Part shown: positions 30,097 through 59,460 of the stretch, one piece after another
How the letters are laid out: each line of letters starts with the position of its first letter
How positions within the stretch are numbered: position 1 is the stretch's first letter
NCBI GenBank assembly: GCA_045605445.1
Contig: JAZUPZ010000029.1
Span: forward strand, 26,265 to 90,264
Source: Clostridia bacterium
GTDB lineage: Bacteria > Bacillota > Clostridia > RGIG6154
Direction of reading: 5' to 3'
Length of the DNA: 64,000 bases
The notes under the pieces: model-generated
Database searches by the model: none
Seen by the model: only the letters and a program-made list of their open reading frames with translations
Told to the model about the DNA's origin: nothing
Program-made: the position numbers and the translations under genes

Positions 30097-30205
30097 AAAA
30101 TTACCAAATATTATGTTACTTTTGCCCAAGCTTATTTCGTTGACAACAGCCCCTGCTTTGTGGTAAAATTATAATGATATATTATGATTTTCAGTGGGGG
30201 ACGTT

Positions 30206-39793: not shown

Positions 39794-40050
39794 ACAAAAT
39801 CTCCTTTTTGCTGAATTTGTACCCAAAGGTACAAAATCCGACATTTTTTATGCTTAAAAGATATCATAAAAAAAGCCTTGTGTCAAGGGAATAAAGGACA
39901 TTATTTTGTTGACAAAAGGAGTGTAAATATATATAATATATTATAGGTATGTTTAGTTGGGCCGGTCTTGAATTTTTATCCGCATATCGTTGACGGTTTT
40001 TTTGTTCCTGATCTGCCGAACTTTTATTTTTTACCTGAGGAGAAATTATT

Positions 40051-41244
40051 ATGAGAAATATTCAGTTTTCGCCACCCGATATTTCCGAAGAGGAAATAAA
40101 AAAGGTCGGGGAGGCTTTGAGGTCCGGTTGGATTACAACGGGGCCTATGACTAAAGACTTTGAAAGAAGAGTAGCAGACTATTGTAACACAAACAGAGCG
40201 GTTTGTCTTAATTCCCAGACGGCGTGTGCCGAAATGACCCTTCGTCTGCTGGGAGTGGGCGAGGGTGACGAGGTTATTACCACCGCTTATACATACACTG
40301 CTACGGCGTCGGTAATCTGTCACACAGGTGCGACGCCTGTTCTTGTTGACACAAAAAAAGACAGCTTTGAAATTGACATAGAAAAAGCCGCAGAGCTTAT
40401 AAACGAGAAAACAAAAGTTATAATTCCCGTTGATATAGCGGGAGTTCCTTGCGATTACGACAAAATTTTCCAAATGGTGGAAAGCAAAAAAAGCCTTTTT
40501 AAACCTAACAACGAAATTCAGAAGGCTTTCGGAAGAGTAATTGTTATGGCTGACGGAGCACACTCCTTTGGTGCAACCTACAAGGGCAAAAAAGCGGGAA
40601 GCGTTGCAGACTTTACAAATTTTTCCTTCCATGCGGTTAAAAATTTAACAACCGCCGAGGGCGGAGCCGTTGCCTGGAAAGATATAGAGGGAATTGACAA
40701 CGAGGAGCTTTATAAACAGTATATGCTTTTATCCCTTCACGGTCAGTCAAAGGATGCTCTGGCGAAAACAAAGCCCGGTGCCTGGGAATACGACATTGTT
40801 GCTCCCAACTATAAGTGTAATATGACCGACGTTGTTGCGGCAATAGGCCATGTTCAGCTTGACAGATATGATGCTCTTCTTGCAAAGAGAAGAAAATACA
40901 TAGAAATGTATAACGAGGCTTTGAAAACTTTAAACGTTCAGGTGCTTGATCACTATAACAGCGAGCATATGTCAAGCGGCCATCTTTATCTTATGAGGCT
41001 TCTTGGCAAAGACTGCGATTTCAGAAATGAATTTATAGTTAAAATGGCTGAGCAGGGAGTTGCAACAAATGTTCACTACAAGCCCCTTCCTCTGCTTACT
41101 GCATATAAAAACCTCGGCTTCGACATAAAGAATTTTCCAAATGCTTATGATATGTATAAAAACGAGGTTTCGCTTCCGCTCAACACGAAAATGACGGAGG
41201 ATGACGTTTTGTATGTTGCGGAAAAAATCCGCTCAATTTTGTAA
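40051..41244 (+). CDS. DegT/DnrJ/EryC1-family PLP-dependent sugar aminotransferase (NDP-4-keto-sugar transaminase, PglE/WbpE/ArnB-like)
   Basis: It has the DegT fold and a conserved Lys region (FSFHAVKNLTTAEGG), with an RBS gaggag. Confidence 0.85.
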   Translation: MRNIQFSPPDISEEEIKKVGEALRSGWITTGPMTKDFERRVADYCNTNRAVCLNSQTACAEMTLRLLGVGEGDEVITTAYTYTATASVICHTGATPVLVDTKKDSFEIDIEKAAELINEKTKVIIPVDIAGVPCDYDKIFQMVESKKSLFKPNNEIQKAFGRVIVMADGAHSFGATYKGKKAGSVADFTNFSFHAVKNLTTAEGGAVAWKDIEGIDNEELYKQYMLLSLHGQSKDALAKTKPGAWEYDIVAPNYKCNMTDVVAAIGHVQLDRYDALLAKRRKYIEMYNEALKTLNVQVLDHYNSEHMSSGHLYLMRLLGKDCDFRNEFIVKMAEQGVATNVHYKPLPLLTAYKNLGFDIKNFPNAYDMYKNEVSLPLNTKMTEDDVLYVAEKIRSIL

Positions 41245-41257
41245 GGGGGAACAGATT

Positions 41258-41893
41258 TTGTATAAGTGTTTTTTTAAGAGATTTTTTGATATTGTTATTT
41301 CGTTTTTCGGTGTTCTTGCGTTCTTACTTGTTTTCATAATAGTTGCACCAATTATTCATTTTACCGACGGAGGTCCTGTTTTCTACAATGCACAGAGAAG
41401 GGGAAGAAACGGCGAGGTTTTCAAAATGTATAAATTCCGTTCAATGAAGGTAAACTCGCCCGACCTTCGCAATGCCGACGGCTCTACATATAACGGCGAT
41501 AACGATCCCAGAGTTACAAAAATCGGAAGAATACTGAGAAAAACCAGCCTTGATGAAATTCCTCAGGTGCTCAATATTTTTCTTGGCGATATGAGCATCG
41601 TTGGTCCTCGTCCGGTGCTTCCTACAAAGCCCGTTGACAGAACCGATGAAATGAGAATGAAAAGGTTCAGCGTAAGACCCGGTCTTACAGGATATAATCA
41701 GGCATATTTCAGAAATTCCGTTGATCAGGAAACAAAGCTTAAAAACGACTGCTACTATGTTGACCATCTTACCTTTATGATGGACGTTAAGGTTATTTTT
41801 GTAACTGCATTAAACGTTCTCAGAAGAAAAAATGTTTACGTTGAACAGGGTGAAACTCATATTGCGCCCGAAAAGGAAGAGGTTAACAAATAA
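41258..41893 (+). CDS. Undecaprenyl-phosphate sugar phosphotransferase, small PglC/WbaP-C-terminal type (priming transferase)
   Basis: FKRFFDIVISFFGVL...KMYKFRSM...PRVTKIGRILRKTSLDELPQ is the bacterial sugar-transferase signature. I chose the TTG start at 41258 with an RBS agggggaa. Confidence 0.8.
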   Translation: MYKCFFKRFFDIVISFFGVLAFLLVFIIVAPIIHFTDGGPVFYNAQRRGRNGEVFKMYKFRSMKVNSPDLRNADGSTYNGDNDPRVTKIGRILRKTSLDEIPQVLNIFLGDMSIVGPRPVLPTKPVDRTDEMRMKRFSVRPGLTGYNQAYFRNSVDQETKLKNDCYYVDHLTFMMDVKVIFVTALNVLRRKNVYVEQGETHIAPEKEEVNK

Positions 41894-43074
41894 TGAAAAA
41901 GCTAATGGTAATCGGAGCCTCTGTGCTTCAGCTTCCTGCAATAAAAAGAGGCAAGGAGCTGGGCTTTGAGGTTGCCGCCGTAGACTACGATGAAAATGCC
42001 GTAGGCATAAAGTATGCAGATAAATTTTATAATATCAGTACAATCGATGCCGAGGGCGTTACCGAAGCGGCAAAGGATTTTAAGGCAAACGGAATAATGA
42101 CTCTTGCCTCTGATATGCCTATGCGCAGTGTTGCAAGGGCGGGAAAAGAGCTGGGACTTCCGGCAATTTCCGAAGAAACTGCAATTTGTGCTACCGATAA
42201 AGGAGAAATGATAAAATGCTTCAAAAAATGCGGTGTTCCTTCTCCCTGGTATTTTATTGCAAAAGACAAAAAAGAATTTGAAGAGCTTCTTGAAAAGGTT
42301 GAGTATCCCTGCATAATGAAGCCTCTTGACAATTCGGGAAGCCGTGGAATTATCCTTGCCAAAAGCAAAGAAGAACTCAAAGAAGGCTATGAATACAGCT
42401 CTTCAAACTCAAGAGGAGCGGGAGTAATAGTTGAAGAGTTTCTTACAGGAAAGGAAATAAGCGTTGAGGTTATGACCGTTAACGGCAAAGCGTATGTTCT
42501 TGCAGTTACCGATAAAACCACGACCGGTCATCCTCACTTCGTTGAAACGGGACACGCTCAGCAGTCTGAGTTTACCGGCGAAATAAGAAAACAAATTGAA
42601 GAGGTTGCAAAAAAAGCAGTTTTCTCAGTAGGAATAGAAAACGGACCTGCCCACGTTGAAATGATGGTAACGGACAAGGGGCCGAAAATGATTGAGCTTG
42701 GTGCCCGAATGGGCGGCGACTGTATAACAACCCATCTTGTTCCCCTTTCAACGGGAATTGATATGGTTGAAGCAACCATAAGGGTTGCCTGCGGTGAAAC
42801 TCCCGACCTTGAAAAGAAGTTTGACAAGGGCAGCGCAATAAGATATTTCAATGTGCCAAAAGGAAAAATAAAAGAAATAAAAGGCGTTGAAGAGGCAGAA
42901 AAGCTTGAAGGTGTAAAGGAAATTACCTTTGTTAAAAATGTTGGCGACGAGGCGGTTGAAATCAACAGTTCTGCCGACAGAGTGGGTTTTATTATCGCTC
43001 AGGGAAGAGATGCCTTCGAGGCAAAGGAAATCTGCAAAAAAGCGATGGAAATGATAAAAATAGTAATTGAGTAG
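41893..43074 (+). CDS. ATP-grasp ligase (carboxylate-amine ligase type) 1
   Basis: ATP-grasp motifs are present (EYPCIMKPLDNSGSRGI, EEFL.G.E.SVE). Confidence 0.75.
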   Translation: MKKLMVIGASVLQLPAIKRGKELGFEVAAVDYDENAVGIKYADKFYNISTIDAEGVTEAAKDFKANGIMTLASDMPMRSVARAGKELGLPAISEETAICATDKGEMIKCFKKCGVPSPWYFIAKDKKEFEELLEKVEYPCIMKPLDNSGSRGIILAKSKEELKEGYEYSSSNSRGAGVIVEEFLTGKEISVEVMTVNGKAYVLAVTDKTTTGHPHFVETGHAQQSEFTGEIRKQIEEVAKKAVFSVGIENGPAHVEMMVTDKGPKMIELGARMGGDCITTHLVPLSTGIDMVEATIRVACGETPDLEKKFDKGSAIRYFNVPKGKIKEIKGVEEAEKLEGVKEITFVKNVGDEAVEINSSADRVGFIIAQGRDAFEAKEICKKAMEMIKIVIE

Positions 43075-43083
43075 GTGTGAATT

Positions 43084-44382
43084 ATGGATTTAAAAAATAA
43101 AACACTGCTTCTTATGGGCGGCGGTGCTTATGCAAAAGGACTTAAAAAATATAAAGACGAAAAGGGCTTTAAAATGATTGCCGTTGGCAGAGATGCCGAC
43201 ACTCCTCTCAGCAGAATAGCAGACGAGTTTTATCAGATTAACACTCAGGATGTTGATGCAGTATCAAAGCTTGTTGAGGAAAAGGGAATCGACGGAATTT
43301 TTGTAGGCTCCTCAGAGGTTAATATCGACCCTGCAATAAAGGTTGCAGAAAGAACCGGCGCAAGATTTTACACCGACAGAAAACAGTGGGACCTTATTTC
43401 AAACAAGGCAAGATTCAAGGAGTTCAGCAGAAAGAACAATGTTCCCGTTGTTCCCGAATTCAGACTTACAAAGGAATTAAAAGAGGAAGACCTTGAAAAG
43501 CTCGTTTTTCCGATAATGATAAAGCCTGTTGACAGCAGCGGTGCCAGAGGTCTTTATGTGTGCTACACAAAAGAGGACCTGCTTAAAAATTACAGCGAAG
43601 CCTTAAAGTGGTCACAAAGCGGAGAAATTATCGTTGAGAAGCTTATAACCGACAGCGACGAGGTTTTCTTTTACTACACAATGCAGGACGGAAACTACAG
43701 CCTTTCTGCGGCGTTTACAAAGCATAAAGTTATATCTGGAAGTGAATATGTTGATGCAACCCTTCCTATTTTCCATATGTACCCCTGCAAATACGTTCCC
43801 GAATTTTTAAGGGATGTTGACCCGGGCGTTAAAAAAATGTTCAGGGAAATGGGACTCAAAAACGGCGTTATAATGCTTCAGGGCTTTGTAAACAAAGAAG
43901 GAAAATTCTGCTTCTTCGAGTCGGGCTTCAGAATGGGCGGCGAGCAGATGTATATTTTAACCGATTATCAGTGGGGAATTAACTCCCTTGAAATGATGGT
44001 TAACTATGCCCTTACCGGAAGTATGGCAGATTTTGATATAAGCGAAAAAGACGATGCAAGGTTCAGACATCCCTGCTGCAACTACTATGTAAGCCTTAAA
44101 TCAGGGGTAATAAAGGAAATGAACGGCATTGAAGAGGTTGAAAAAATGCCTGAGGTTCTTAATGTAACCGTAATGAGTCAGCCGGGAGACGTTATTCCCG
44201 AAACTAATGCGCTTGAACGTTGCTGTCTCAGAATTCACGTTGTGGGAGAAACAAAGGAAAAGCTTGCAAAGGCTCTTGAAAAAATCAGCGCAACCTTAAG
44301 AATTATCTCAACAGAAAACGAAGAAATGCAGATTGAGCATCTTACATATGAAAGATGCCTCGATGCAATAGAAAGGTCTTAA
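43084..44382 (+). CDS. ATP-grasp ligase 2
   Basis: ATP-grasp motifs are present (FPIMIKPVDSSGARGL, VEKLI.....FFYY). It is paralogous to the upstream gene. Confidence 0.75.
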   Translation: MDLKNKTLLLMGGGAYAKGLKKYKDEKGFKMIAVGRDADTPLSRIADEFYQINTQDVDAVSKLVEEKGIDGIFVGSSEVNIDPAIKVAERTGARFYTDRKQWDLISNKARFKEFSRKNNVPVVPEFRLTKELKEEDLEKLVFPIMIKPVDSSGARGLYVCYTKEDLLKNYSEALKWSQSGEIIVEKLITDSDEVFFYYTMQDGNYSLSAAFTKHKVISGSEYVDATLPIFHMYPCKYVPEFLRDVDPGVKKMFREMGLKNGVIMLQGFVNKEGKFCFFESGFRMGGEQMYILTDYQWGINSLEMMVNYALTGSMADFDISEKDDARFRHPCCNYYVSLKSGVIKEMNGIEEVEKMPEVLNVTVMSQPGDVIPETNALERCCLRIHVVGETKEKLAKALEKISATLRIISTENEEMQIEHLTYERCLDAIERS

Positions 44383-44385
44383 ATT

Positions 44386-45732
44386 ATGATTCACGCAACA
44401 AAGCTTCTTGCTGAATTTGTGTATAATCTTAAATTTGAAAATATTAAAAAAAGCGACGTTGAATATACAAAGCTGCTTATAATGGACTACTTTGCCGCTT
44501 CCTTTGCGGGAATTAAGGTCAACAAGGTCTACAATCGTGCAGTAGAGGAAATAATCTGCGGAATGGGCGGAAAAGAGGAGGCTTCGGTGCTTAATTCAGC
44601 CAAAAAGCTTCCCTTGCTGAATGCAGCATTTGTAAATGCAACCTATGCTCACGGTGCCGATATGGACGACGGTCACAAAAGGGCAATGGGACATGTGGGA
44701 GCTCACGTTATTTCAGCAGTTTTTGCTCTTGCTCAAACGTTGAACGTTTCCGGTAAAGAGGTTTTAACGGCAATTGTTGCGGGCTATGAAATTTATGTAA
44801 GAGTGTCTGCAGCGGCTCAGCCGGGCCTTGTAAACAGAGGCTTCCATTCAACGGGAACTGCAGGAGCAGTTGCCTGTGCGGCGGCTTGTGCAAAGCTCCT
44901 TAAGCTTGATGCAAAAGGGATTTACAATTCAATGGCAATTTCCGTAACTCAGGCAAGCGGGCTTATGATTATCGCCGAAAGCGGACAAATGATAAAGCCG
45001 CTTAATCCTGCAAGGGCGGCTCAGGGCGGAATTCTGTCAGCCCTTATGACAAAAAAAGGAGTTGTGGGCGGAGACTTTCCTCTTGAAAGCGAAAAGGGAT
45101 GGTTCCACGCTATGACCGACTCCGTTGACGAGGGAATGATAACAAAGGGACTGGGCGAAAGCCTTGAGGTAAGCCAGTGCTACTTTAAGCCATATCCTTC
45201 CTGCCGTCATACTCACGGGGGCGTTGAGGCGGCTCTTGAACTGAGAAAAGGAATTAACATAAACGAAATTGAAAAAATTACTCTTTACACATATAAAAAT
45301 GCAATAAAAATTGCGGGGCAGATAGAAATTCCCGAAAAAGAGGGAGACTCGAAATTTTCTATTCACTATGCCCTTGCCTGCGCTATTGCAAGAGGCCATT
45401 TCGGTCTTTCAGACCTTGCCCTTGAAAATAACGGAGATGTTATTGCCTTTGTTTCAAAAATTCAGCTTGTTGAAGATCCGGGTATGGAAATAAAGGAAAA
45501 GGGAATAAGAGGCGCAAGACTTGAAATTACAATGAAGGACAAGAGAGTGCTTGAAAAAACGGTACTTGTTCCAAAGGGCGATCCCGAAAGCCCCTTCACA
45601 GTTGAGGATATGAAGGAAAAGCTTGAAGGCTGTGCAGGAAAAGATTTCGGAGAAAATATTGCCGACAGGGTTATTGACTATGTAAACAATATTGAATTTC
45701 AGGACAAGTTCCGATATATAAGAGAGGGTTAA
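44386..45732 (+). CDS. MmgE/PrpD-family protein (2-methylcitrate dehydratase / cis-aconitate decarboxylase superfamily)
   Basis: The N-terminal LAEFV..L.FE.I....V...K....D..A....G and the overall length are typical of MmgE/PrpD. Confidence 0.8.
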   Translation: MIHATKLLAEFVYNLKFENIKKSDVEYTKLLIMDYFAASFAGIKVNKVYNRAVEEIICGMGGKEEASVLNSAKKLPLLNAAFVNATYAHGADMDDGHKRAMGHVGAHVISAVFALAQTLNVSGKEVLTAIVAGYEIYVRVSAAAQPGLVNRGFHSTGTAGAVACAAACAKLLKLDAKGIYNSMAISVTQASGLMIIAESGQMIKPLNPARAAQGGILSALMTKKGVVGGDFPLESEKGWFHAMTDSVDEGMITKGLGESLEVSQCYFKPYPSCRHTHGGVEAALELRKGININEIEKITLYTYKNAIKIAGQIEIPEKEGDSKFSIHYALACAIARGHFGLSDLALENNGDVIAFVSKIQLVEDPGMEIKEKGIRGARLEITMKDKRVLEKTVLVPKGDPESPFTVEDMKEKLEGCAGKDFGENIADRVIDYVNNIEFQDKFRYIREG

Positions 45733-45735
45733 AAA

Positions 45736-46815
45736 ATGAGTATTATAAACAAGCTTCAAAGCGCATCAATGACTGCGAGAAAAATAAGAAGAAAAATTCT
45801 TGTTAAAAAGTCGAACAAAAGCTATTTTAAAAAATTAAAGGACCACGGTATTCCCTTAAGGGAGCTTTCTTCTGAACAGAAAAAGCAGATTGACGGGGTT
45901 TACAAAAAATATAATTTTAAATATGGCTACGATACTCACAGGCTTATCTATTCGGTGACCGGAAATTTTGATCCTTATTTTATGCCCGAGGATATGTTCC
46001 GTCAGATTGAGCTTAAACTCAACGATCCGGAGCTTAAAGGTGCCTGGTCAGACAAGAGCTATTTTGACTTTTTCTTCCCGGAAATAAGATTTCCCGTGAC
46101 CGTTGTAAGAAACATTGCGGGTACCTTCTATGATAAAGACTATAATATAATTTCAGCGGAAAAGGCAAAGGAAATTGTTTCAGCATACGATAAATTTGCA
46201 ATAAAGCCCTCCCTTGATAACGGAACGGGCAAAGGGGTTGCTCTCGGCACAAAAGAGGACGACCTTGACAAAATGTTTAAAAAATATAAAAGAGATTACG
46301 TTATTCAGGAGGTAATCAAACAGCATAAGAACATTGCTCAGTTTAATGAATCCTCCGTTAACGTTGTAAGATTTATAAGCCTTTTTGTAAACGACAGGGT
46401 TGTTCCCGTAATGGCGGCATTAAGAGTTGGCGCAAAGGGAGCTTTTAACGACAACTCAATCTCAAAAGAGGGCGAGGGTATGCTTGTAATCGGCATCGAC
46501 GAAAAGGGATGCCTTAAAAAAGATGCCTATATGTCCTGCGGTATGAGGGTTGAAGAGTCTCACAGCGGAGTAAGATTCGAAGGGGTTCAGATTCCCGGCT
46601 TTGAAAAAATGAAGGAAATAATTGTAAAGGGTCACAGCAAAATGCCGAACTTCAAGTTCGTTGCCTGGGATTTTGCCGTTGATGAAAACGGCGAGGTTCT
46701 TGTTATGGAATATAACATAAAAGGTCCCGGAGTGCTCTATTATCAGTATGTTAACGGTCCGCTTTTTGCAGAGTATACCGATGAATTATTAAAATATGTT
46801 CAGGAGAAGTTGTAA
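45736..46815 (+). CDS. Sugar-transfer-associated ATP-grasp protein (TupA-like), tentative
   Basis: Its size, its glycan-locus context and the C-terminal FVAWDFAVDENGEVLVMEYN / VVRFISLF segments resemble the ATP-grasp_TupA family. Confidence 0.45.
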   Translation: MSIINKLQSASMTARKIRRKILVKKSNKSYFKKLKDHGIPLRELSSEQKKQIDGVYKKYNFKYGYDTHRLIYSVTGNFDPYFMPEDMFRQIELKLNDPELKGAWSDKSYFDFFFPEIRFPVTVVRNIAGTFYDKDYNIISAEKAKEIVSAYDKFAIKPSLDNGTGKGVALGTKEDDLDKMFKKYKRDYVIQEVIKQHKNIAQFNESSVNVVRFISLFVNDRVVPVMAALRVGAKGAFNDNSISKEGEGMLVIGIDEKGCLKKDAYMSCGMRVEESHSGVRFEGVQIPGFEKMKEIIVKGHSKMPNFKFVAWDFAVDENGEVLVMEYNIKGPGVLYYQYVNGPLFAEYTDELLKYVQEKL

Positions 46816-48056
46816 TGAAAATTTTAATGCTTAAGCCTTATTACACTCCCGAGTCTGTATCAAGCTCTCACCTTTCAGAGGATATGATGGAGTCATATCT
46901 TGCCGAAGAGGATATAACTATTGAGATACATACGCCTTATCCAACCAGGGGTGTTTCAAAGGAAGTAAGAAAAGAATTTATTAAAAATAAAAAACACGAG
47001 GTTCTTGAAAACGGCAGACTTACCGTTCACAGATTCCCTATGTTCAGAGAAGGAAGAAATTCTCTTTTAAGAGCCTTCAGATATACTCTTTGTATTATTG
47101 CAAACACAATTAACGGTCTTAAGGCTAAAGATGTTGACGTGTTCACCATTGCCAGCACACCTCCTATAAACGGTCTCATGATGGCGGTTCTCAAAAAGTT
47201 CAAGGGATATAAGATTATGTATAATCTTCAGGATATTTTCCCTGATTCTCTTGTAAATACGGGAATGACCAAAAAGGGCTCCTTCTTATGGAAAATAGGC
47301 AGATGGATTGAAAATATGACCTATAGAGCTGCAGATGTTATTACCGTTATTTCTGAAGATTTTAAAAAGAATATAATGGAGAAGGGTGTTCCCGAGGAAA
47401 AAATTGAAATTGTTTACAACTGGGTTGACGAAAACAAGGTTGTTAACGTTGAAAGGGAAGACAATCCTCTTTATGACAAATTCGGTCTTGACAGAAATAA
47501 GTTTTATATTTGTTACAGCGGCAATGTGGGCTATACCCAGAATCTTGATATGCTTAAAACCGTAGCTAAAAATTTAAAAGAGTATGAAGATATTGAATTT
47601 ATAATAATAGGCGAGGGCGCCTATAAAGAAAAGCTTATTTCAGAGCTTGAAGAGGAAAACATTAAAAACATAAAGCTGTTTCCGTTCCAGGACTACAGCG
47701 ATATTTCCTGCGTTTTCTCTCTTGGCGATGCGGGTCTTGTTATGTCTAAAAAAGGCGTTGGAACAAATTCGGTTCCAAGTAAAACCTGGAGCATAATGTC
47801 GGCAGAGCGTCCGGTGCTTGCCTCCTTTGACAAGGGCTCTGAGCTTGACAGTATAATTGAAAGTCAGAAATGCGGAATCTGTGTTGATGCCGACGATGTT
47901 GAAGCCTTTACCGGTGCCGTTATCGAAATGTATAACAACAAAGATTTGTTAAGAGAGCTTGGCAAAAACGGAAGACAGTTTATTTTAGACAATCTTACAA
48001 AAGAAACAGGTACAAAGAAAAACTTGGAAATTATGAGAAGGATTGTAAATGGTTAA
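46815..48056 (+). CDS. Glycosyltransferase family 4 (WbuB-like)
   Basis: It has the GT-B fold and an N-terminal MKIL.LKPYY.PE motif. Confidence 0.8.
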   Translation: MKILMLKPYYTPESVSSSHLSEDMMESYLAEEDITIEIHTPYPTRGVSKEVRKEFIKNKKHEVLENGRLTVHRFPMFREGRNSLLRAFRYTLCIIANTINGLKAKDVDVFTIASTPPINGLMMAVLKKFKGYKIMYNLQDIFPDSLVNTGMTKKGSFLWKIGRWIENMTYRAADVITVISEDFKKNIMEKGVPEEKIEIVYNWVDENKVVNVEREDNPLYDKFGLDRNKFYICYSGNVGYTQNLDMLKTVAKNLKEYEDIEFIIIGEGAYKEKLISELEEENIKNIKLFPFQDYSDISCVFSLGDAGLVMSKKGVGTNSVPSKTWSIMSAERPVLASFDKGSELDSIIESQKCGICVDADDVEAFTGAVIEMYNNKDLLRELGKNGRQFILDNLTKETGTKKNLEIMRRIVNG

Positions 48057-50032: not shown

Positions 50033-50041
50033 GTGAGGAAA

Positions 50042-52425: not shown

Positions 52426-52442
52426 ATTGAAAGGAATGTAAT

Positions 52443-53927
52443 ATGGCTAAAGGATTGATGAAAACCGTAAAGGGAATGGCATTGATGTCTTCAAGCATTT
52501 TTATTGACTATGTGGTCAATCTTATAATAACTTATGTGCTTGCAAGGCTTCTTACTCAGGCAGATTACGGTGAGGTTGCGGCAATAACGGTAATGGTCGG
52601 CTTTGCGGACATTTTCTGGCAGATGGGCGTAGGTCCTGCTCTTGTTCAGAAAAAAGATGCTACTGAAAAAGACATTTTAACAGCCCAAACTCTTAACCTT
52701 ATGTTTGGCGTTGTGCTATTTTCGGTTGTTAATATTTTTGCAGGCTTCTGGGTTAAAGTTTTCAGCATTTCAAATATTATAATGTTCAGAATTTACTCAA
52801 CTGTTTTCCTGCTGAACAGCTATATTGCAACCCCTATGTCTCTTGCGCAGAGAAACTGCAATTTCAAGCTTTTGTCAAAGCTTAATGTATGGGGTGTTGT
52901 GTTCTACGGGGTTATCGCAATAATCCTTGCAAAAATGGGCTTTGGTCCCTGGGCACTTATTTATGCAACCCTTTTGAGATATGTGTTCAAGCTGGTGCTG
53001 CTTGTTATTAACGTAAAGCTGAAATTCAGCCTTTATTTTAATAAGGAATCGGCAAAAAGCCTTCTTTTCTTCGGAAGCGGACACACTCTTGCAAGAATTT
53101 TTAATTACATAGCAAATAACGGAGATACCTTCGTTGTAAATAAAACTCTTACAAAAGCGGCGGTAGGCGCCTATACAAAAACCTACAGCCTTATCGGTTA
53201 TCCCGCAAGCCTTATCGGAAACACTCTTGACCACGTAATGTTTCCCATTTTATCAGGCTGTCAGGACGACCACGCAAAAATCAGAAAGTTTTTGTATACC
53301 TGCACAAGCTTTGTGGCGCTCATGACGGTTCCTCTTTCGGTTACCTGTGTTTTCTGCAGCGAAGACCTTGTTCTTTTCTTCCTGGGCGAAAACTGGGTAT
53401 CAATCGTTGAACCCTTTAATATAATGATTGTTGCTCTGTTCTTCAGAACGGCATACAGAATTGCAGATACAATAACAAAATCAATAGGTAAGGTTTATTA
53501 CCGTTCCGTAATTCAGATTGTTTATGCGGTTTCGGTTGTTCTCGGAGCCTATGTCGGTCACTTTAACGGACTTACAGCTATCGCTTTTTATGTAACAATT
53601 GCTTTTGTTCTTAACTATTTCCTTATGACCGGACTTTGTATGTATTTTATAAAAGCAAATGTTCTTAAATATATCTCAACGGCAATCGGACCTTTTGTTT
53701 ACGGCTTTGTGGCTCTTATGGCGGGAATGCTTGTTAAAGGCTTTATAAATCAGATTCAGAACCACTTCCTGGTGTGCGCCGCATGGGCAATATTTATTTT
53801 CGGAATTTACGCTCTGCTCTTTTTAACAACAAGAAAGTTTATGCTTGTAAAAGAATTAAACGAGTCCTTTGATTCGGTTGTAAAATCCTTTTTCAGTAAG
53901 CTGAAAAAGAAAAATCAGGAGGGATAA
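52443..53927 (+). CDS. Wzx-type oligosaccharide flippase (MOP superfamily)
   Basis: It has 12-14 TM helices and the polysaccharide-biosynthesis-protein architecture. Confidence 0.7.
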   Translation: MAKGLMKTVKGMALMSSSIFIDYVVNLIITYVLARLLTQADYGEVAAITVMVGFADIFWQMGVGPALVQKKDATEKDILTAQTLNLMFGVVLFSVVNIFAGFWVKVFSISNIIMFRIYSTVFLLNSYIATPMSLAQRNCNFKLLSKLNVWGVVFYGVIAIILAKMGFGPWALIYATLLRYVFKLVLLVINVKLKFSLYFNKESAKSLLFFGSGHTLARIFNYIANNGDTFVVNKTLTKAAVGAYTKTYSLIGYPASLIGNTLDHVMFPILSGCQDDHAKIRKFLYTCTSFVALMTVPLSVTCVFCSEDLVLFFLGENWVSIVEPFNIMIVALFFRTAYRIADTITKSIGKVYYRSVIQIVYAVSVVLGAYVGHFNGLTAIAFYVTIAFVLNYFLMTGLCMYFIKANVLKYISTAIGPFVYGFVALMAGMLVKGFINQIQNHFLVCAAWAIFIFGIYALLFLTTRKFMLVKELNESFDSVVKSFFSKLKKKNQEG

Positions 53928-53930
53928 GAA

Positions 53931-55421
53931 ATGTTATCTGCGGTTGAAAAATTTATAAAAACCTTTAATGAAAAGGGAATTTTATACTGTCACTATAAAG
54001 GAAACAATCATATAGAAGATGGCCTTGAAGGCATATCCGACCTTGACATTCTTGTGGATAAAACACAAAAAAAAGAATGTAAAGAAGCTTTGAAGGAAAT
54101 GGGCTTTGTTCACTTTAAATCTCAGGAGGGTTCGGCTTTTGAGTCTGTGGAAGACTGGATAAACGTTGACAGCGAAACGGGAAAAATGATTCATATTCAT
54201 TTGTATTATGAAATAATAACCGGAACAAAATACGTTGAAGAGTATCGTATCCCCTGGGAAAAACAAATTCTTGAAACAAGAATTCAGGATGTTAACCACG
54301 GCGGAATTTACATTTCCTCAAGAGAGGCAGAGCTTGCTCTTGTTTATGCAATTATGAGCCTTAAAAAGGAAAAAAGCGTTTCGGAAAAGAATATGAAAAA
54401 GCTTGATTTCTTTAAGCCCGTTGCGGAAGATGAAGCTCTTGAAGCTTTTCTTAAATCTGTGTTTAAAGAAGAGGATGCGGAAAAATTCGGAGAAATTCTT
54501 CACAGATATTATAACCTTGAAAAAACATATAAAATCATTTCTTCTTATGCAGAAAGAAGGGTAAGCCCTTTGAAAACCCTTCTTTGTCATAAGAAAACTG
54601 ATTTTAAGATAAAAATGAAATCAAAGCTTAACAGAAAGCTTAAAACCAATTTTGTTTTAAAGAAAACAATTGAAGGTAACGGATTTTCTGTTTGCTTTGC
54701 AGGTGCCGACGGCTCAGGAAAAAGCACAATCAGTGCCGATGTAATCAAATGGCTTAACTGGAAAATAGACTCAAAAAATTTTTACCTCGGAAGCGGTGAC
54801 CAGTATCACAGCCTGTGGAAAACAATAACCCTTAAGTTCGGCGGAAGAACAAGCAGAACAGCTCCTGCAGCAGATTCAAAGCCTGAGGATAAAGAAAACA
54901 ATGCGGTAAAAGCTCCGGCTCCCGTTAAAAGAAAGTTTTCAATTTTAAGCTACGGTATGGCGGTTGTTAACTGTCTTAACGAGGTTGGAATAGCAAAGTA
55001 TAAGTATAAAACTCTTAAAAAAGCCGAAAAATATATGAGAAAAGGCGGAATTGCAATTTTTGACCGCTTCCCTCAGATGCAGTTTGCGGGAGTTTACGAC
55101 GGTCCTAAGCTTGATGGCGTGCTCAAAAAATTCCCAAAAAGTATTGTTATAAATCATTTTCACAAAAAAGAACGTAAGCTTCTTGAGCTTATAACAACAA
55201 ATTATTATCCTACAATTTTAATTAAGCTTATTCTTCCGCCGGAAGAGTCAATAAGAAGAAAACCCGACCATAATTTCAAAGAGGTTGCGCTTAAGGCAGA
55301 AATTACCGAAAAGCTTGAATTTGAAAAATCTCAGGTTGAAAAAATTGATGCAACCCAGCTTTATGAAAATGAACTCATTGAGGTGAAAAACATTATATGG
55401 GAAAAAGTAAAAAGCCTGTAA
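53931..55421 (+). CDS. Two-domain protein: N-terminal nucleotidyltransferase-fold (GLEGISDLDILVD) plus C-terminal P-loop kinase (dTMP-kinase-like, FAGADGSGKST ... FDRFP)
   Basis: The hG[GS]..SDxD motif of Pol-beta-type nucleotidyltransferases is present, together with Walker A and a DR(Y/F)-like motif. Confidence 0.45.
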   Translation: MLSAVEKFIKTFNEKGILYCHYKGNNHIEDGLEGISDLDILVDKTQKKECKEALKEMGFVHFKSQEGSAFESVEDWINVDSETGKMIHIHLYYEIITGTKYVEEYRIPWEKQILETRIQDVNHGGIYISSREAELALVYAIMSLKKEKSVSEKNMKKLDFFKPVAEDEALEAFLKSVFKEEDAEKFGEILHRYYNLEKTYKIISSYAERRVSPLKTLLCHKKTDFKIKMKSKLNRKLKTNFVLKKTIEGNGFSVCFAGADGSGKSTISADVIKWLNWKIDSKNFYLGSGDQYHSLWKTITLKFGGRTSRTAPAADSKPEDKENNAVKAPAPVKRKFSILSYGMAVVNCLNEVGIAKYKYKTLKKAEKYMRKGGIAIFDRFPQMQFAGVYDGPKLDGVLKKFPKSIVINHFHKKERKLLELITTNYYPTILIKLILPPEESIRRKPDHNFKEVALKAEITEKLEFEKSQVEKIDATQLYENELIEVKNIIWEKVKSL

Positions 55422-56083
55422 TAATAGAGCTTACGGGATTTCCGGGAGTGGGAAAAACAACGGTAAGCAGTAAGCTTTCCGAAAGGTACGGTCAGGAGCT
55501 TAACCTTTCCGATTACATAAATTTTTTTAGCAGCGGGGAATCGGGCGTTAAGAACTATATAAAATTTTTAAAGGACGGCGACCTTGTTCAGCTTTTCAAC
55601 CTTGCTTGTTATCTTGCTTCGATAAGAAGGCTTAAGTCAATAAAATATGTTCTGAAAAATGTATATATATTTACTCTGACTTACAAAAGCTTCTGCAAAA
55701 ACAGTAAATACAGCTACACTCTCTCAGACGACAGTATGATTCAGGCAATAACCCTGCTGAATTTTCCAGAAAAATTTGTTCTTAATAAATATTCTGAAAG
55801 AATTTTCAAAAGGCTTTTTTCAAGGTTTGAAATAGTTGCGGTTAACTGTATCTGCGACAAGGAAATCTGTATGGAGAGGCTTATTGAAAGAAATCACAGC
55901 AAGGGAAGATTTGACAAAATTGACAAAAACAATAAAGAAGAGCTTAAAAGGGTTCTTGGAAATTTTGAAGAATCTCTTGAAATTGTAAGAAATTATCTTG
56001 AAAGTATCGGCGTAAAGCAGATAAATCTTGATATGACTGCGACACCTGAGGAAAATGCGGAAATAATTTATAAAAATCTTTAA
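55397..56083 (+). CDS. P-loop NTPase / small-molecule kinase (AAA_33/zeta-toxin/CPT-like fold)
   Basis: Walker A GFPGVGKTT lies at the N-terminus of a ~225-aa protein. Confidence 0.5.
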   Translation: MGKSKKPVIIELTGFPGVGKTTVSSKLSERYGQELNLSDYINFFSSGESGVKNYIKFLKDGDLVQLFNLACYLASIRRLKSIKYVLKNVYIFTLTYKSFCKNSKYSYTLSDDSMIQAITLLNFPEKFVLNKYSERIFKRLFSRFEIVAVNCICDKEICMERLIERNHSKGRFDKIDKNNKEELKRVLGNFEESLEIVRNYLESIGVKQINLDMTATPEENAEIIYKNL

Positions 56084-56095
56084 AGGAAGTATTTT

Positions 56096-57277
56096 ATGAT
56101 ATCGGATAAGCTTTTAACTCAATTTTTAAAAAGATACCCGGGAGCGGAAAACCCTATGAAGGCATTCTGTCCTTACAGAGTTTGCCCCATCGGTGCCCAC
56201 GTTGACCATCAGCACGGGAAAATAACCGGCTTTGCTATTGATAAGGGAATTGAAATTGTGTTCATCCCTACAAAAAACGGCGTTGTTGAACTGTCAAGCC
56301 TTAACTTTGAAGGTAAAAAACAGTTTCATATAAACAGTGTTCCCGAAAAGCAAAATGACTGGGCAGACTATTTAAGAGGTGCAACAATTGCAATCGGAGA
56401 AAGATACGAGCTGAAATACGGGGTTTATGCTCTTATTTCCGGCGGTCTTCCCATAGGCGGACTTTCTTCCTCTGCGGCTGTAATTCTTGCCTATATGTCA
56501 GCTCTTTGCAAGGCGAACAACATTCATCTTAACCAAAGAGAGGTTGTTGAAATTGCTCAGTCGGCAGAGAATAATTATGTTGGAATCAGCGTTGGAAAGC
56601 TTGACCAGTCCTGCGAGATATATTCCAAAAAAGAGCATCTGCTTTATCTTGATACAAGAACAGACGAATATCAGCTTATTCCTTTAAATAAAAAAATGAA
56701 GCCCTTTGAAATTGCGGTTTTTTTCAGCGGAGTTGAAAGAACTCTGGTGGGAAGCGCATATAATATGCGAGTAGACGAGTCAAAATCTGCGGCATATGCT
56801 CTTCTGGCTTTTGCAAATCAGCCTTACGGCAAATTCAAAGAAACCAGACTTCGCGATGTTGAAGAAAGTGTTTTTGAAAAATATAAGGACAAGCTTCCGG
56901 AAAACTGGAAAAAAAGAGCAATGCACTATTACAGCGAGCAAAACAGAGTTGAAAAAGGCGTTGAGGCGTGGAAAAACGGCGATATCGATGCTTTCGGAAG
57001 CCTTTCTTACGAAAGCGGAATAAGCAGTATTGAAAATTATCAGACAGGCTCAACCGAGCTTAAAGCATTAAGTGAAATAATGGCTCATACCGAAGGTATT
57101 TACGGCGGAAGGTTCAGCGGAGCAGGCTTTAAAGGCTGTTGTATAGCTCTTGTAGACCCGGCAAAAAAGAAAAGCATAAAAGAACAGGTTACAAAGGAAT
57201 ATCTCGGAAAGTTTCCTGAGCTTGAAGGCAAATTTTCCGTTCATTTCTGTAAAACCGCCGACGGATGTGAATTTTAA
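56096..57277 (+). CDS. GHMP-family sugar 1-kinase, galactokinase-like
   Basis: It has a GalK signature (PYRVCPIGAHVDHQHG) and the GHMP motif LPIGGLSSSAAV. Confidence 0.8.
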   Translation: MISDKLLTQFLKRYPGAENPMKAFCPYRVCPIGAHVDHQHGKITGFAIDKGIEIVFIPTKNGVVELSSLNFEGKKQFHINSVPEKQNDWADYLRGATIAIGERYELKYGVYALISGGLPIGGLSSSAAVILAYMSALCKANNIHLNQREVVEIAQSAENNYVGISVGKLDQSCEIYSKKEHLLYLDTRTDEYQLIPLNKKMKPFEIAVFFSGVERTLVGSAYNMRVDESKSAAYALLAFANQPYGKFKETRLRDVEESVFEKYKDKLPENWKKRAMHYYSEQNRVEKGVEAWKNGDIDAFGSLSYESGISSIENYQTGSTELKALSEIMAHTEGIYGGRFSGAGFKGCCIALVDPAKKKSIKEQVTKEYLGKFPELEGKFSVHFCKTADGCEF

Positions 57278-57295
57278 AACAAAGGAGAAGGATTT

Positions 57296-58039
57296 ATGAA
57301 ATGTGTTGTTCTTGCGGCAGGATATGCAACAAGGCTGTATCCTCTTACAGAAAATTTTCCAAAACCGCTTCTTGAGGTTAAAAACAAAACTATTCTCGAT
57401 TGGCTTTTAGATGATATCGACGGTATTGAGGGAATAAATGAATATGTAATTATTTCAAATCACAGATATTTTGAGCATTTTAAAAGCTGGGCAGAAAATA
57501 AAAAGCTTTCTGCTCCTATAACCCTTATAGACGATGGCTCTGTTGATAATGAAAACAGACTGGGAGCAGTAAAGGATATTGATTTTGCGGTAACCGAGTT
57601 AAAGCTTAACGACGATTTAATGGTTATCGCAGGGGATAACGTGCTCGATTTCAGCTTTAAATCTTTTGCAGACTACTTTAAAGAAAAAAACAGTACCTGC
57701 ATAATGAGATATTTTGAAGAAAATAAAGAGAAAATAAAAAAGAGCGCTGCGGCAGTTGTTGATGAAAACGGCAAGGTTCTCAATATGACTGAGAAACCTG
57801 AAAATCCTCAGTCAAACTGGTGCGTTCCGCCCTTTTACATTTATAAAAAGTGCGACATTCCTTACATAAAAAAGGCAATAGAATCCGGCTGTAAAACCGA
57901 TGCTCCGGGAAGCTTTGTTGCCTGGCTGTCTTCTCAGACAACCGTTCATGCAATGGAAATGCCGGGTAAAAGATTCGATGTGGGAAACCTTGAAAGCTAT
58001 AACTATGTAAAGGAAACCTATAACGGAATAACAAAATAA
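57296..58039 (+). CDS. Sugar-1-phosphate nucleotidyltransferase
   Basis: MKCVVLAAGYATRLYPLT..FPKPLL is the NTP_transferase N-terminal signature. Confidence 0.8.
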   Translation: MKCVVLAAGYATRLYPLTENFPKPLLEVKNKTILDWLLDDIDGIEGINEYVIISNHRYFEHFKSWAENKKLSAPITLIDDGSVDNENRLGAVKDIDFAVTELKLNDDLMVIAGDNVLDFSFKSFADYFKEKNSTCIMRYFEENKEKIKKSAAAVVDENGKVLNMTEKPENPQSNWCVPPFYIYKKCDIPYIKKAIESGCKTDAPGSFVAWLSSQTTVHAMEMPGKRFDVGNLESYNYVKETYNGITK

Positions 58040-58092
58040 ACAGTCGAACCTTTTCAGGTTCGACACTTTTATGAACAACAGGAGATTACAAA

Positions 58093-59460
58093 ATGGAACA
58101 AATTAAAGAAAACAAGATGGGCGTAATGCCCGTAAACAGACTTTTAATAACAATGGCACTGCCGATAATGATCTCAATGCTGGTTCAGGCGCTTTACAAT
58201 ATTGTTGACAGTATTTACGTTGCAAGAGTAAGCGATGCGGCTTTAAATGCTGTGTCGCTGGCATTTCCCGCTCAGAATTTAATGATAGCAATAGGAACGG
58301 GAACGGGAGTTGGTATAAATGCTCTTTTGTCCAGGTCCCTTGGTGAAAAAAACTTTAAGCTTGCAAATAAAATTGCCGAAAACGGCGTTTTTCTTGCTTT
58401 TATGAGCTATGTGCTTTTCTTGATTTTCGGACTTACTGCCTGCGAGGTTTATTTTAAAGCGCAGACAACAAATGCAGAGGTAATTTCAGGGGGAACAAGC
58501 TATTTGTTCGTATGCTCTGTTTTTTCCTTTGGTGTATTCGGGCAGATTGTTTTTGAAAGACTTGTTCAGGCAACGGGAAAAACAATTTACAGTATGCTTA
58601 CTCAGGGCTTCGGTGCAATAATAAACATAATTTTAGACCCGATTTTTATTTTCGGATTTTTCGGAATTCCGGCAATGGGCGTAACAGGAGCCGCAATTGC
58701 AACAGTTGCAGGTCAGATTTGTGCAATGATTCTCGGAATTTTGCTTAATCATTTCAAGAATCCGGAAGTTAAGCTTAATTTTAAGAAGTTCAGACCTTCG
58801 CTAAGAATAATAAAGGAAATTTATGCAATCGGAATTCCCAGCATAATAATGAGTGCAATAACCTCGGTTATGACCTTTTGCCTTAACAAAATTCTTTACG
58901 GCTTTACCGAGCTTGCGGTAAACGTTCTGGGAATTTATTTCAAGCTTCAGAGCTTTGTGTTTATGCCGGTGTTCGGGCTTAATAACGGGCTTGTTCCCAT
59001 TGTAAGCTACAACTATGGTGCAGGAAAAAGAAAAAGACTTGTTAAGTCGGTAAAGCTTGCTTTGGTTTATGCGTTTTCAATTTTGTTTGTAGGATTTTTA
59101 GTGTTTCAATTTGCCTGTGAACCGCTGCTCAGAGTTCTGTTCGATGCTTCCGACGAGGTTGTAAAAATCGGAGCTCCCGCATTAAGAATTATAAGCTTAA
59201 GCTTTCTTCTTGCGCCCTTCTGTATAATAATAATTTCAACTCTTCAGTCTCTTGGCAAAGGATTTCAGGCAATGGTTATATCTATGGTAAGACAGTTGGT
59301 GTTCTTAATTCCCGTGGCGTTTTTAATGTCCCTTACAGGCGTTTTGAATGCAGTATGGACCGCATTTCCGATAGCTGAGCTTGCTTCGGTTATCTGCGCA
59401 GTATTTATGTTTGTGTCGGTATATAAAAAGGTTATAAGCAAAATTCCAAACAATGAATAA
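58093..59460 (+). CDS. MATE-family efflux transporter
   Basis: It has 12 TM helices and the MatE N-terminal motif (PI.ISMLVQALYNIVDSIYVA). Confidence 0.8.
   Translation: MEQIKENKMGVMPVNRLLITMALPIMISMLVQALYNIVDSIYVARVSDAALNAVSLAFPAQNLMIAIGTGTGVGINALLSRSLGEKNFKLANKIAENGVFLAFMSYVLFLIFGLTACEVYFKAQTTNAEVISGGTSYLFVCSVFSFGVFGQIVFERLVQATGKTIYSMLTQGFGAIINIILDPIFIFGFFGIPAMGVTGAAIATVAGQICAMILGILLNHFKNPEVKLNFKKFRPSLRIIKEIYAIGIPSIIMSAITSVMTFCLNKILYGFTELAVNVLGIYFKLQSFVFMPVFGLNNGLVPIVSYNYGAGKRKRLVKSVKLALVYAFSILFVGFLVFQFACEPLLRVLFDASDEVVKIGAPALRIISLSFLLAPFCIIIISTLQSLGKGFQAMVISMVRQLVFLIPVAFLMSLTGVLNAVWTAFPIAELASVICAVFMFVSVYKKVISKIPNNE

Follow-up and report, generated by a model that had tools for sequence, protein, structure and literature searches.

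What would a surface-glycan operon do with three ATP-grasp ligases and an enzyme of the MmgE/PrpD family? The question is raised by a 64,000-nucleotide stretch of contig JAZUPZ010000029.1 from a Clostridia bacterium (hereafter the window), in which these four genes stand in a row between a priming phosphoglycosyltransferase (PGT) and the first of four glycosyltransferases. We find that the first ligase belongs to a gene unit that is conserved across many metagenome loci, and that PrpD-like genes are linked to such ligases in several bacterial groups. The reading we favour, on what we regard as an evenly balanced judgement, is that the 4-amine of the amino sugar, or a chain on it, is amidated with a C4-dicarboxylate-type acid through the ligases and the PrpD-like enzyme. 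That the ligases decorate this glycan is held more confidently than the acceptor atom, the order of ligation or the identity of the acid, all of which we infer.

The ligases follow a predicted amino-sugar priming module

Gene identities were assigned by Pfam scans. The gene classes named in a preliminary description of the window, which was made from the sequence alone, are present at the positions it gave, with scores above curated cut-offs (Table 1). The operon comprises 17 plus-strand open reading frames (ORFs) in tandem at 40051-58039, with intergenic distances of -25 to +18 nt. This tight spacing, together with a perfect promoter-like site upstream of the first gene, indicates a single operon, and a terminator-like hairpin downstream of the last gene marks its probable end. 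A priming PGT, a Wzx flippase and a Wzy-type polymerase are found within this one locus, and the operon is predicted to build a Wzx/Wzy-dependent surface heteropolysaccharide.

The first gene encodes a DegT-family aminotransferase that is 55% identical to Streptococcus pneumoniae Spr1654 (PDB 6EWJ) over 393 aa (E 4e-151). The reaction predicted for Spr1654, in teichoic acid synthesis, is from UDP-4-keto-6-deoxy-GlcNAc to UDP-AATGal; its sugar substrate was modelled rather than demonstrated. The dehydratase of S. pneumoniae, Spr0092, is a membrane protein of its own (PMC5936713). In characterised glycans the 4-amine of AATGal is free and is the source of the polymer's positive charge (PMC5936713). 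In the window, the Spr1654-like gene, the adjacent small Bac_transf-type PGT and a PglF/CapD-like dehydratase together constitute an AATGal synthesis and priming module, whose product is probably AATGal, the galacto-configured 2-acetamido-4-amino-2,4,6-trideoxyhexose. The PGT start overlaps the DegT end (the true start may lie a few codons further 3'), and the protein holds an Asp-Glu pair in ...TSLDEIPQ... that we take to be the PglC-type catalytic dyad. The free 4-amine of such a sugar would be an obvious nucleophile beside three amide ligases.

As previously described, the dehydratase gene lies outside the operon, 8 kb upstream; its product would provide UDP-4-keto-6-deoxy-GlcNAc. An orthologue stands immediately 5' of DegT in five relatives (L005, L099, L104, L113 and L128). 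In S. pneumoniae, judging from locus-tag numbering, the Spr0092 gene is presumably unlinked from Spr1654, like the dehydratase gene here.

The three ligases fall into two ATP-grasp clades. LAL_A, of the L-amino-acid-ligase (LAL) type, abuts the PGT, with position 41893 shared by the PGT stop and the LAL_A start. Its closest PDB matches are 4dim (an Anaerococcus protein, E 2e-38) and the dipeptide ligases BL00235 and BacD, and it reaches no NCBIfam equivalog model (BacD, 67 bits against a cut-off of 850). The family is large, with more than 4000 matches at E<1e-20; in the top 120, every protein is about 393 aa long and at least 60% identical, and none of these 120 is fused to a PGT or a DegT protein. 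LAL_B is divergent: it aligns full length to 4dim (E 8e-21), but scores slightly below the cut-off of ATP-grasp_4 (26.3 bits against 27). At 26% identity to LAL_A over the full length (E 8e-30), it is a distant paralogue; the preliminary description had called the two paralogous.

The third ligase had been called TupA-like, an assignment that does not hold. PF14397 (ATPgrasp_ST, "sugar-transfer associated") is the only family reported for it, and the TupA family (PF14305) gives no match at E<=0.01. It has an ATP-grasp fold nearest to ArgX/LysX, GshB (glutathione synthetase) and RimK, with 11-19% identity to these enzymes and a long N-terminal helical extension (residues 1-115). The carboxylate that enzymes of this kind activate is borne by a peptide or a carrier protein. 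They are set in lysine or arginine biosynthesis or ribosomal protein modification, whereas the ATPgrasp_ST gene is set in a glycan locus. A housekeeping role of the three genes as copies of Ddl, carbamoyl-phosphate synthase (CPSase) or PurK was rejected, since their scores fall far under the equivalog cut-offs and their linkage to glycan genes is conserved.

The DegT-PGT-LAL_A triad is conserved in metagenome loci

To describe this linkage, metagenome contigs were scanned with a LAL_A alignment, yielding 80 loci (53-61% identity) whose neighbouring genes were typed by BLAST against a reference set. Denominators in this survey are the loci whose contig leaves room for the gene counted. A PGT adjoins LAL_A in 59 of 60 loci, and an AATGal-type DegT gene lies within four genes of it in 40 of 43, often with a dehydratase gene directly 5' of DegT. 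The earlier view that the ATP-grasps are not Ddl or CPSase housekeeping paralogues is borne out by these counts. The gene directly 3' of LAL_A encodes another ATP-grasp in 34 of 60 loci, and a hexapeptide or GNAT gene was seen near LAL_A in 4 of 80.

The conserved unit is thus (PglF)-DegT-PGT-LAL_A with a variable ligase tail of up to six further ATP-grasps. The longest tail, on the JGI contig of protein P0219, reads DegT-PGT-LAL_A-LAL-GNAT, four tandem ATPgrasp_ST genes, LAL_B and DctM (seven ATP-grasp genes), and another locus reads DegT-PGT-LAL_A-ATP-grasp-GNAT-pyruvyltransferase, followed further on by ATP-grasp-DctM. Compact loci also occur, such as L005, which reads PglF-DegT-PGT-LAL_A-PrpD-GT4, with no acyltransferase. 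The window is a variant of the triad that carries LAL_B, the PrpD-like gene and one ATPgrasp_ST. Its nearest relative, L008, has a LAL_B that is 97% identical and a PrpD-like protein that is 77% identical, but is without ATPgrasp_ST and two of the glycosyltransferases (GT4b and GT2).

LAL-family enzymes typically yield free dipeptides (bacilysin; Asp-Met by LdmS), and PrpD relatives are also found outside glycan loci. Both facts would suit genes whose product is soluble and small (a metabolite resembling a dipeptide, for example, or a precursor of cell-wall peptide) and that are mere passengers in a variable glycan locus. We consider this very unlikely. Translational coupling ties the genes in between the priming transferase and the first glycosyltransferase; ~98% of the sampled loci preserve the order DegT-PGT-LAL_A; and no exporter or self-resistance gene is associated with the ligase-PrpD genes.

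The amino sugar is the probable site of ligation

Replacement of an N-acetyltransferase by the ATP-grasps had been proposed for this locus. No hexapeptide or GNAT acyltransferase is found in the 64-kb window, either by Pfam on the main ORFs or by a home-made hexapeptide hidden Markov model on all ORFs of at least 70 aa, and to that extent the proposal stands. However, AATGal modules normally have no such gene. As the DegT protein is of the AATGal type, whose amine normally stays free, the argument from a missing acetyltransferase is weakened.

If the amine were indeed free, the product would be a zwitterionic AATGal polysaccharide like Bacteroides fragilis polysaccharide A (PSA) or pneumococcal Sp1, and the ATP-grasps would amidate a uronic acid or other acidic residue with amino acids or a PrpD-handled amino-dicarboxylate, in the manner of TupA or Cj1438C. 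The DegT/PGT module, with its free amine in known glycans, fits this alternative, as does Cj1438C, an ATP-grasp that amidates C6 of glucuronic acid. Furthermore, a hexapeptide acetyltransferase gene accompanies the ligase set in L059, L074 and L077, a UDP-sugar dehydrogenase gene is present in L092, and the galactokinase-like GHMP kinase and the nucleotidyltransferase of the operon, with two GH28 genes of the window, could in principle salvage a uronic acid. We nevertheless think it unlikely. UDP-sugar dehydrogenase genes occur in 5 of 80 LAL_A loci and 2 of 87 PrpD loci and are absent from the window, L005 and L008. LAL_A stands almost invariably right after DegT-PGT, a position that speaks for the amino sugar as the target. 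Three ligases are kept even in minimal loci without any glycosyltransferase, for example L088, and the third ligase is not of the TupA type. Uronic-acid amidation was rejected as the leading explanation because the dehydrogenase genes are so rarely linked, and it is retained as a rival.

The PrpD-like protein is predicted to be an active enzyme on a dicarboxylate

Characterised MmgE/PrpD members act on a C4 1,4-dicarboxylate skeleton via a C2 enolate (Berg and colleagues, PMC12290011). They comprise 2-methylcitrate dehydratase, cis-aconitate decarboxylase (CAD), iminodisuccinate (IDS) epimerase and methylsuccinate isomerase. In the epimerases an additional Tyr takes part (PMC12290011; PMC7347537). 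His277 and Tyr318 matter for the activity of mammalian CAD (PMC7347537). No role in glycan decoration is described in these two papers, and literature searches gave no relevant paper either for MmgE/PrpD with ATP-grasp in glycans or for ATP-grasp with amide-linked polysaccharide.

The PrpD-like protein of the window has its best PDB matches in bsIRG1 of Bacillus subtilis (E 2e-31), IDS epimerase (E 3e-25) and CAD (E 2e-22), and matches true PrpD (1szq) at E 2e-4. An AlphaFold2 model (pLDDT 85) has TM-scores of 0.82-0.83 to bsIRG1 and IDS epimerase, within a range of 0.71-0.83 to the MmgE/PrpD enzymes compared. Residues H89, D92, H103, H154, K204 and K268 are invariant in 13 relatives and are the same residues as the catalytic set in PMC12290011. 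Given this invariant common set, the protein is predicted to be active on a substituted succinate or an aconitate-type acid. The fold and the carboxylate-binding and catalytic His/Lys set are thus shared with CAD, IDS epimerase, methylsuccinate isomerase and 2-methylcitrate dehydratase; the PrpD-like protein differs in lacking the epimerase Tyr and in having Cys at the CAD His277 position. The superfamily assignment made at the outset therefore holds, with its catalytic set, but the protein is not a 2-methylcitrate dehydratase and clusters instead with CAD and IDS epimerase. A role in the methylcitrate cycle was rejected on NCBIfam scores of 41 bits (cut-offs 575 and 950) and 30 bits (cut-off 458).

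PrpD-like genes are linked to ligases and DegT in several bacterial groups

PrpD-like relatives were surveyed with one genome per species, giving 80 loci with BLAST-typed neighbours. In 21 of these 80 species-level loci, PrpD has a LAL-type ligase no more than two genes away. DegT is present in 16 of the 21 loci with an adjacent ligase and in 2 of the 59 without (Fisher p 1e-10, with species that are not fully independent). The ligase-PrpD linkage is seen in Clostridia, in Bacteroidales (Butyricimonas, Bacteroides, Alistipes and Muribaculaceae) and in Adlercreutzia, and on both the UDP (PglF/PGT) and the dTDP (RmlA/RmlB) amino-sugar routes. The ligase directly 5' of PrpD is LAL_B in eleven loci (L008, L047, L059, L066, L067, L073, L075, L086, L136, L140 and L142) and of the LAL2, AGc or LAL_A type in other related loci.

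Genes that could supply an acid are found in the same places. DASS (di/tricarboxylate) or DctM transporter genes adjoin PrpD or the ligases in related loci, with DASS beside PrpD in 9 of the 21 ligase-adjacent loci. A six-gene cassette follows PrpD on its 3' side, also in 9 of the 21; whole or in part, it occurs in 9 of 10 PrpD-containing metagenome loci, with the full set in 4. Its genes encode, in order, an aldo-keto reductase, a thiamine pyrophosphate (TPP) enzyme, a 305-aa protein, a PF15617 TIM-barrel C-C lyase, and Fumerase_C and Fumerase (class-I Fe-S hydro-lyase subunits). The TPP enzyme passes the phosphonopyruvate decarboxylase equivalog (414 bits against a cut-off of 312), and no phosphoenolpyruvate (PEP) mutase was found among the cassette-locus ORFs scanned. 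The 305-aa protein belongs to no family, and neither it nor the C-C lyase has solved relatives. Naming the acid from the cassette was therefore given up. In L075, an AsnB-type glutamine amidotransferase gene (6686-8632) between DegT and LAL_B would suit a step that amidates a carboxylate left free in the attached acid, and L073 has an ORF of similar size at 5270-7252.

The preliminary claim that an unusual acid is made and ligated gains from these results, namely the PrpD-ligase-DegT linkage and the fit of the transporters and acid-biosynthesis cassette; it is tempered by the accessory status of PrpD, described below.

Three further settings of PrpD relatives were recognised. In Acutalibacteraceae and Faecalibacterium the setting is Dlt-like, with PrpD, an AMP-binding enzyme, a 76-aa carrier-sized protein, an MBOAT protein and a DltD-sized protein, usually preceded by LysR, ABC transporter, isochorismatase and hydantoinase-like amidohydrolase genes. 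The aspartate of the Phe-Asp pair in nonribosomal peptide synthetase (NRPS) adenylation domains binds the alpha-amino group. The Dlt-like adenylating enzyme has Asn-His at this position, which is suggestive at most. Another setting consists of operons of LysR, CN_hydrolase, PrpD, ABC transporter and amidohydrolase genes, several of which abut glycan or peptide loci (L007, L046, L048 and L091). In L039, a LysR, CN_hydrolase, PrpD, ABC operon lies downstream of a direct duplication (1764-8076) that comprises an ATPgrasp_ST gene, a Wzx-like flippase gene and a distant PrpD-like gene (26-28% identical). In the last setting, tandem divergent PrpD-like pairs flank a DctM-type gene (L051, L054-L058 and L064; ~6.8-11.3 kb), with no ligase or glycan genes nearby. 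In a neighbour-joining tree the settings interleave, and the window protein groups with those of L008, L005 and L007. A thread that may be common to the settings is a dicarboxylate-type acid that is imported, released or made, and that would pass through a PrpD-like enzyme and a carboxylate-activating enzyme to a surface polymer.

These settings bear on a further alternative, in which an ordinary dicarboxylic or amino acid (such as aspartate, glutamate, malate or succinate) is ligated. The PrpD-like enzyme would then make no new acid but would fix the stereochemistry, as an epimerase or isomerase of the ligated residue or of an N-substituted aspartate, giving for example a D-aspartyl-type residue. 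Two of the four characterised MmgE/PrpD activities epimerise 2-substituted succinates, and the PrpD-like protein scores equally well against IDS epimerase and CAD. Relatives share operons with genes for a hydantoinase/allantoinase-like amidohydrolase and for a CN_hydrolase of the N-carbamoyl-amidase-like kind, a pair reminiscent of the pathway by which hydantoins yield D-amino acids. An N-acetylated amino-acid residue would fit the small GNAT genes that are found with the ligases in L091, L092, L093 and the P0219 locus. This alternative nevertheless seems improbable to us, since Tyr145 of IDS epimerase, the second base, is replaced by Val149 here and across the family. In addition, the carboxylate-binding residues suggest that both substrate carboxylates are free, and the Asn-His pair of the Dlt-like adenylating enzyme argues against an alpha-amino acid as the product.

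Proposed route to an amide-linked acidic side chain

In the reading we favour, UDP-GlcNAc would be converted by the PglF-like dehydratase to UDP-4-keto-6-deoxy-GlcNAc, by DegT to UDP-AATGal, and by the PGT to undecaprenyl-diphosphate (Und-PP)-linked AATGal. The ATP-grasp ligases would then turn the 4-amine into an amide-linked acidic side chain, rather than leave it free as in pneumococcal teichoic acid or Bacteroides fragilis polysaccharide A (PSA). LAL_A is the candidate for the first amide on the 4-amine because of its near-invariable position after DegT and PGT. LAL_B would introduce a C4-dicarboxylate-type acid, such as a substituted succinate, an itaconate-like acid or an aspartate derivative, which the MmgE/PrpD-like enzyme would make or tailor through a C2 enolate; in single-ligase loci the ligase sits beside PrpD and DegT (e.g. 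L067, L075, L062 and L001). ATPgrasp_ST might add a further amine or amino acid to the remaining free carboxylate. The four glycosyltransferases would finish the repeat before Wzx and Wzy act, with the kinase/nucleotidyltransferase pair supplying one nucleoside-diphosphate (NDP)-sugar by salvage. Since a DASS transporter and the supply cassette are both missing from the window, the PrpD-like enzyme would draw on an ordinary metabolite. The simplest candidate, at the level of a guess, is cis-aconitate, with itaconate as the product; a citrate synthase gene is present in the window at 25704-27080.

Several observations weigh against this reading. A PrpD-like gene lies within five genes of LAL_A in 8 of 36 loci and is thus an optional accessory; being absent from ~78% of the loci, its product is not needed by LAL_A. 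L088, which consists of DegT-PGT-LAL-ATPgrasp_ST-LAL_B, has no PrpD. The window itself is without a dicarboxylate transporter and without the supply cassette. With regard to the acceptor, the genome could have an acetyltransferase gene beyond the 64-kb window, and because the AATGal amine is free in characterised glycans, a missing acetyltransferase proves nothing. L059, from Butyricimonas muris, reads DegT-hexapeptide acetyltransferase-PGT-LAL-LAL_B-PrpD, and hexapeptide genes are also found in L074, L077 and L078; in these four loci the amine may be acetylated and the ligases act elsewhere. Finally, the PrpD-like protein is 20-24% identical to its nearest characterised or solved members, the epimerase Tyr (Tyr145/Tyr148, the second catalytic base) aligns with Val149 throughout the family, and the position of human CAD His277 is Cys273. 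With this combination the type of reaction is not readable from sequence.

Relation to known systems

The closest functional precedent is Neisseria PglB2, an ATP-grasp/PGT protein that makes glyceramido-acetamido-trideoxyhexose (GATDH). As judged by described function, both systems combine an ATP-grasp, a PglC-type PGT and a 4-aminotransferase, and in the PglB2 sugar the 4-amine bears a non-acetyl acyl group. However, the ATP-grasp is fused to the transferase in PglB2, whereas the genes are separate and abutting in the window, which also has three ligases of two clades and an MmgE/PrpD enzyme. The sugar in the window is moreover probably galacto-configured AATGal, not bacillosamine. The loci for pneumococcal teichoic acid (Spr1654, Spr0092) and B. 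fragilis PSA (WcfR/WcfS) resemble the window in the 55%-identical aminotransferase beside a small PGT, the separate PglF/CapD-like dehydratase and Wzx/Wzy export, but their 4-amine is free and no ATP-grasp or MmgE/PrpD genes are part of them as described in the papers. Campylobacter jejuni Cj1438C and Bacillus TupA share with the window a locus-encoded ATP-grasp and ATP-dependent amide formation on a surface polysaccharide. Both are of the TupA-like type, and what they activate is a uronic acid carboxylate, whereas the ligases of the window are of the LAL and ATPgrasp_ST types, with no linked genes for uronic acid synthesis.

The combination had been described as unlike any characterised locus. 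This holds, within the literature searched, for the link between MmgE/PrpD and ATP-grasp in glycans, but not for ATP-grasp N-acylation as such, for which PglB2 is a precedent. Already known, then, are ATP-grasps in place of acetylation on a bacillosamine-type sugar (PglB2) and ATP-grasp amidoligases of capsule loci (C. jejuni). What appears to be new is the widespread, conserved DegT-PGT-LAL_A triad, its multi-ligase tails, and the recruitment of MmgE/PrpD with transporters or a cassette to glycan decoration.

AATGal-type aminotransferase genes serve as genomic markers of immunomodulatory zwitterionic polysaccharides (ZPS) in gut bacteria. If a conserved ligase acylates the AATGal amine with an acid, the charge predicted for such ZPS would be reversed, and their immunology would probably differ from what is assumed. 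The MmgE/PrpD family, known from catabolism and itaconate synthesis, would gain a biosynthetic role at the cell surface, and an ATP-grasp family that builds peptide-like chains on a lipid-linked sugar would be defined. We offer a wider extension tentatively, as a possibility that we consider less likely than not: gut anaerobes (Clostridia, Bacteroidales and Coriobacteriia) would share a widespread glycan class in which one to seven ATP-grasps build a template-independent oligo-amide chain on the priming 4-amino sugar, PrpD supplies dicarboxylates, the same acid goes to amide ligation or to Dlt-like esterification, and many "zwitterionic AATGal" loci are actually anionic. Itaconate-like acids are one possibility, and the linked phosphonopyruvate-decarboxylase-like gene suggests that the acids might even bear a phosphonate. 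Related loci are carried by cultured bacteria, namely Mediterraneibacter massiliensis Marseille-P2086 (L076), Butyricimonas muris (L059) and Adlercreutzia sp. ZJ304 (L067), in which direct testing is possible.

Other features of the locus and the window

Table 1 Features of the 64-kb window and of two cassettes in related loci (window positions unless a locus is named)
Feature	Position	Strand	Evidence and remarks
SpoIID	27206		Pfam
SpoIIR	29506		Pfam
PglF/CapD-like membrane UDP-GlcNAc 4,6-dehydratase	30194-32086	+	Polysacc_synt_2 405 bits, E 1.5e-121; CoA_binding_3
Promoter-like site, sigma-70 type	39909-39937	+	TTGACA-17-TATAAT, 12/12 against consensus; ~115 nt 5' of DegT
DegT-family sugar 4-aminotransferase, AATGal type (Spr1654/WcfR)	40051-41244	+	PF01041 316 bits, E 4e-94
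Small monotopic PGT, PglC/WcfS-like, 230 aa	41201-41893	+	Bac_transf 202 bits, E 8e-60
LAL_A, L-amino-acid-ligase-type ATP-grasp	41893-43074	+	ATP-grasp_4 82.6 bits (cut-off 27); LAL_C2 69.2 bits (cut-off 29.4)
LAL_B, divergent LAL-type ATP-grasp	43084-44382	+	LAL_C2 38.8 bits (cut-off 29.4); CPSase_L_D2 28.5 (cut-off 19.8)
MmgE/PrpD-family enzyme, CAD/IDS-epimerase clade	44386-45732	+	N domain 193 bits, C domain 103 bits (cut-off 32.1)
Third ATP-grasp, ATPgrasp_ST	45736-46815	+	PF14397 99 bits, above gathering score
Glycosyltransferases (four)	GT4 46815-48056; GT4 48049-49242; GT2 49121-50032; GT4 50033-51121	+	Pfam
Wzy-type polymerase	51118-52425	+	Wzy_C 47.9 bits
Wzx flippase	52443-53927	+	Polysacc_synt_3 236.7 bits
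496-aa protein and overlapping 228-aa P-loop kinase-like protein	53931-56083	+	Weak NTP_transf_5 (496-aa protein); between Wzx and sugar kinase
Galactokinase-like GHMP kinase	56096-57277	+	Pfam/NCBIfam
Sugar-1-phosphate nucleotidyltransferase	57296-58039	+	Pfam/NCBIfam
Terminator-like hairpin	58043-58064	+	3' of last gene; operon end probable
MatE	58093-59460		Beyond hairpin
Six-gene cassette	L075 11367-16988		Also L047, L066, L067, L073, L074, L076-L078, L086, L115, L128, L134, L135
Dlt-like esterification cassette	L003 9947-15954		Also L009, L010, L012, L021-L029, L033, L037, L080

Genes of the interval that the preliminary description had not mentioned encode a 496-aa protein, a P-loop kinase-like protein, the GHMP kinase and the sugar-1-phosphate nucleotidyltransferase. 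An NCBIfam scan gave no family for the first two; NTP_transf_5 genes recur in the related loci L005, L034, L146, L149, L157 and L165. The kinase and nucleotidyltransferase are a predicted salvage route to one NDP-sugar; the kinase is 89% identical in L008, and L005 has an Fkp-like fusion at the corresponding position. The window also holds a pair of neighbouring GH28 (polygalacturonase-type) genes, at 15129-17653, and a uronic-acid or galactose salvage link between these and the kinase/nucleotidyltransferase pair is conceivable. MatE was rejected as a member of the locus and is probably a separate unit, since the hairpin precedes it.

The locus shows no compositional break in a window of ~39% GC. 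Identity to L008 is mosaic across 40051-53927, at 97% for LAL_B, 88% for DegT, 83% for LAL_A, 77% for PrpD and 52-53% for Wzy and Wzx, and this, with three genes that L008 lacks, suggests recombination inside the glycan locus. ATPgrasp_ST is retained after PrpD in two relatives other than L008.

Between the dehydratase and the operon lie genes for a SpoVB-like flippase, HU, a serine dehydratase with a fused helix-turn-helix, an MmeI-type restriction-modification protein, and mscL. This block may be an insertion, because in L005 and other relatives no gene separates the dehydratase from DegT. The restriction-modification gene (type IIL, 36541-39312) has all five MmeI domains. The serine dehydratase, at 34969-36423, matches the L-serine dehydratase beta chain in part and the alpha chain in full, and its fused N-terminal helix-turn-helix is of the XRE type. 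As judged by SpoIID and SpoIIR, the window is from a sporulating Firmicute. A predicted surface protein of 3344 aa, encoded at 1348-11382, combines leucine-rich repeats of the BspA type with 11 Listeria-Bacteroides repeat domains.

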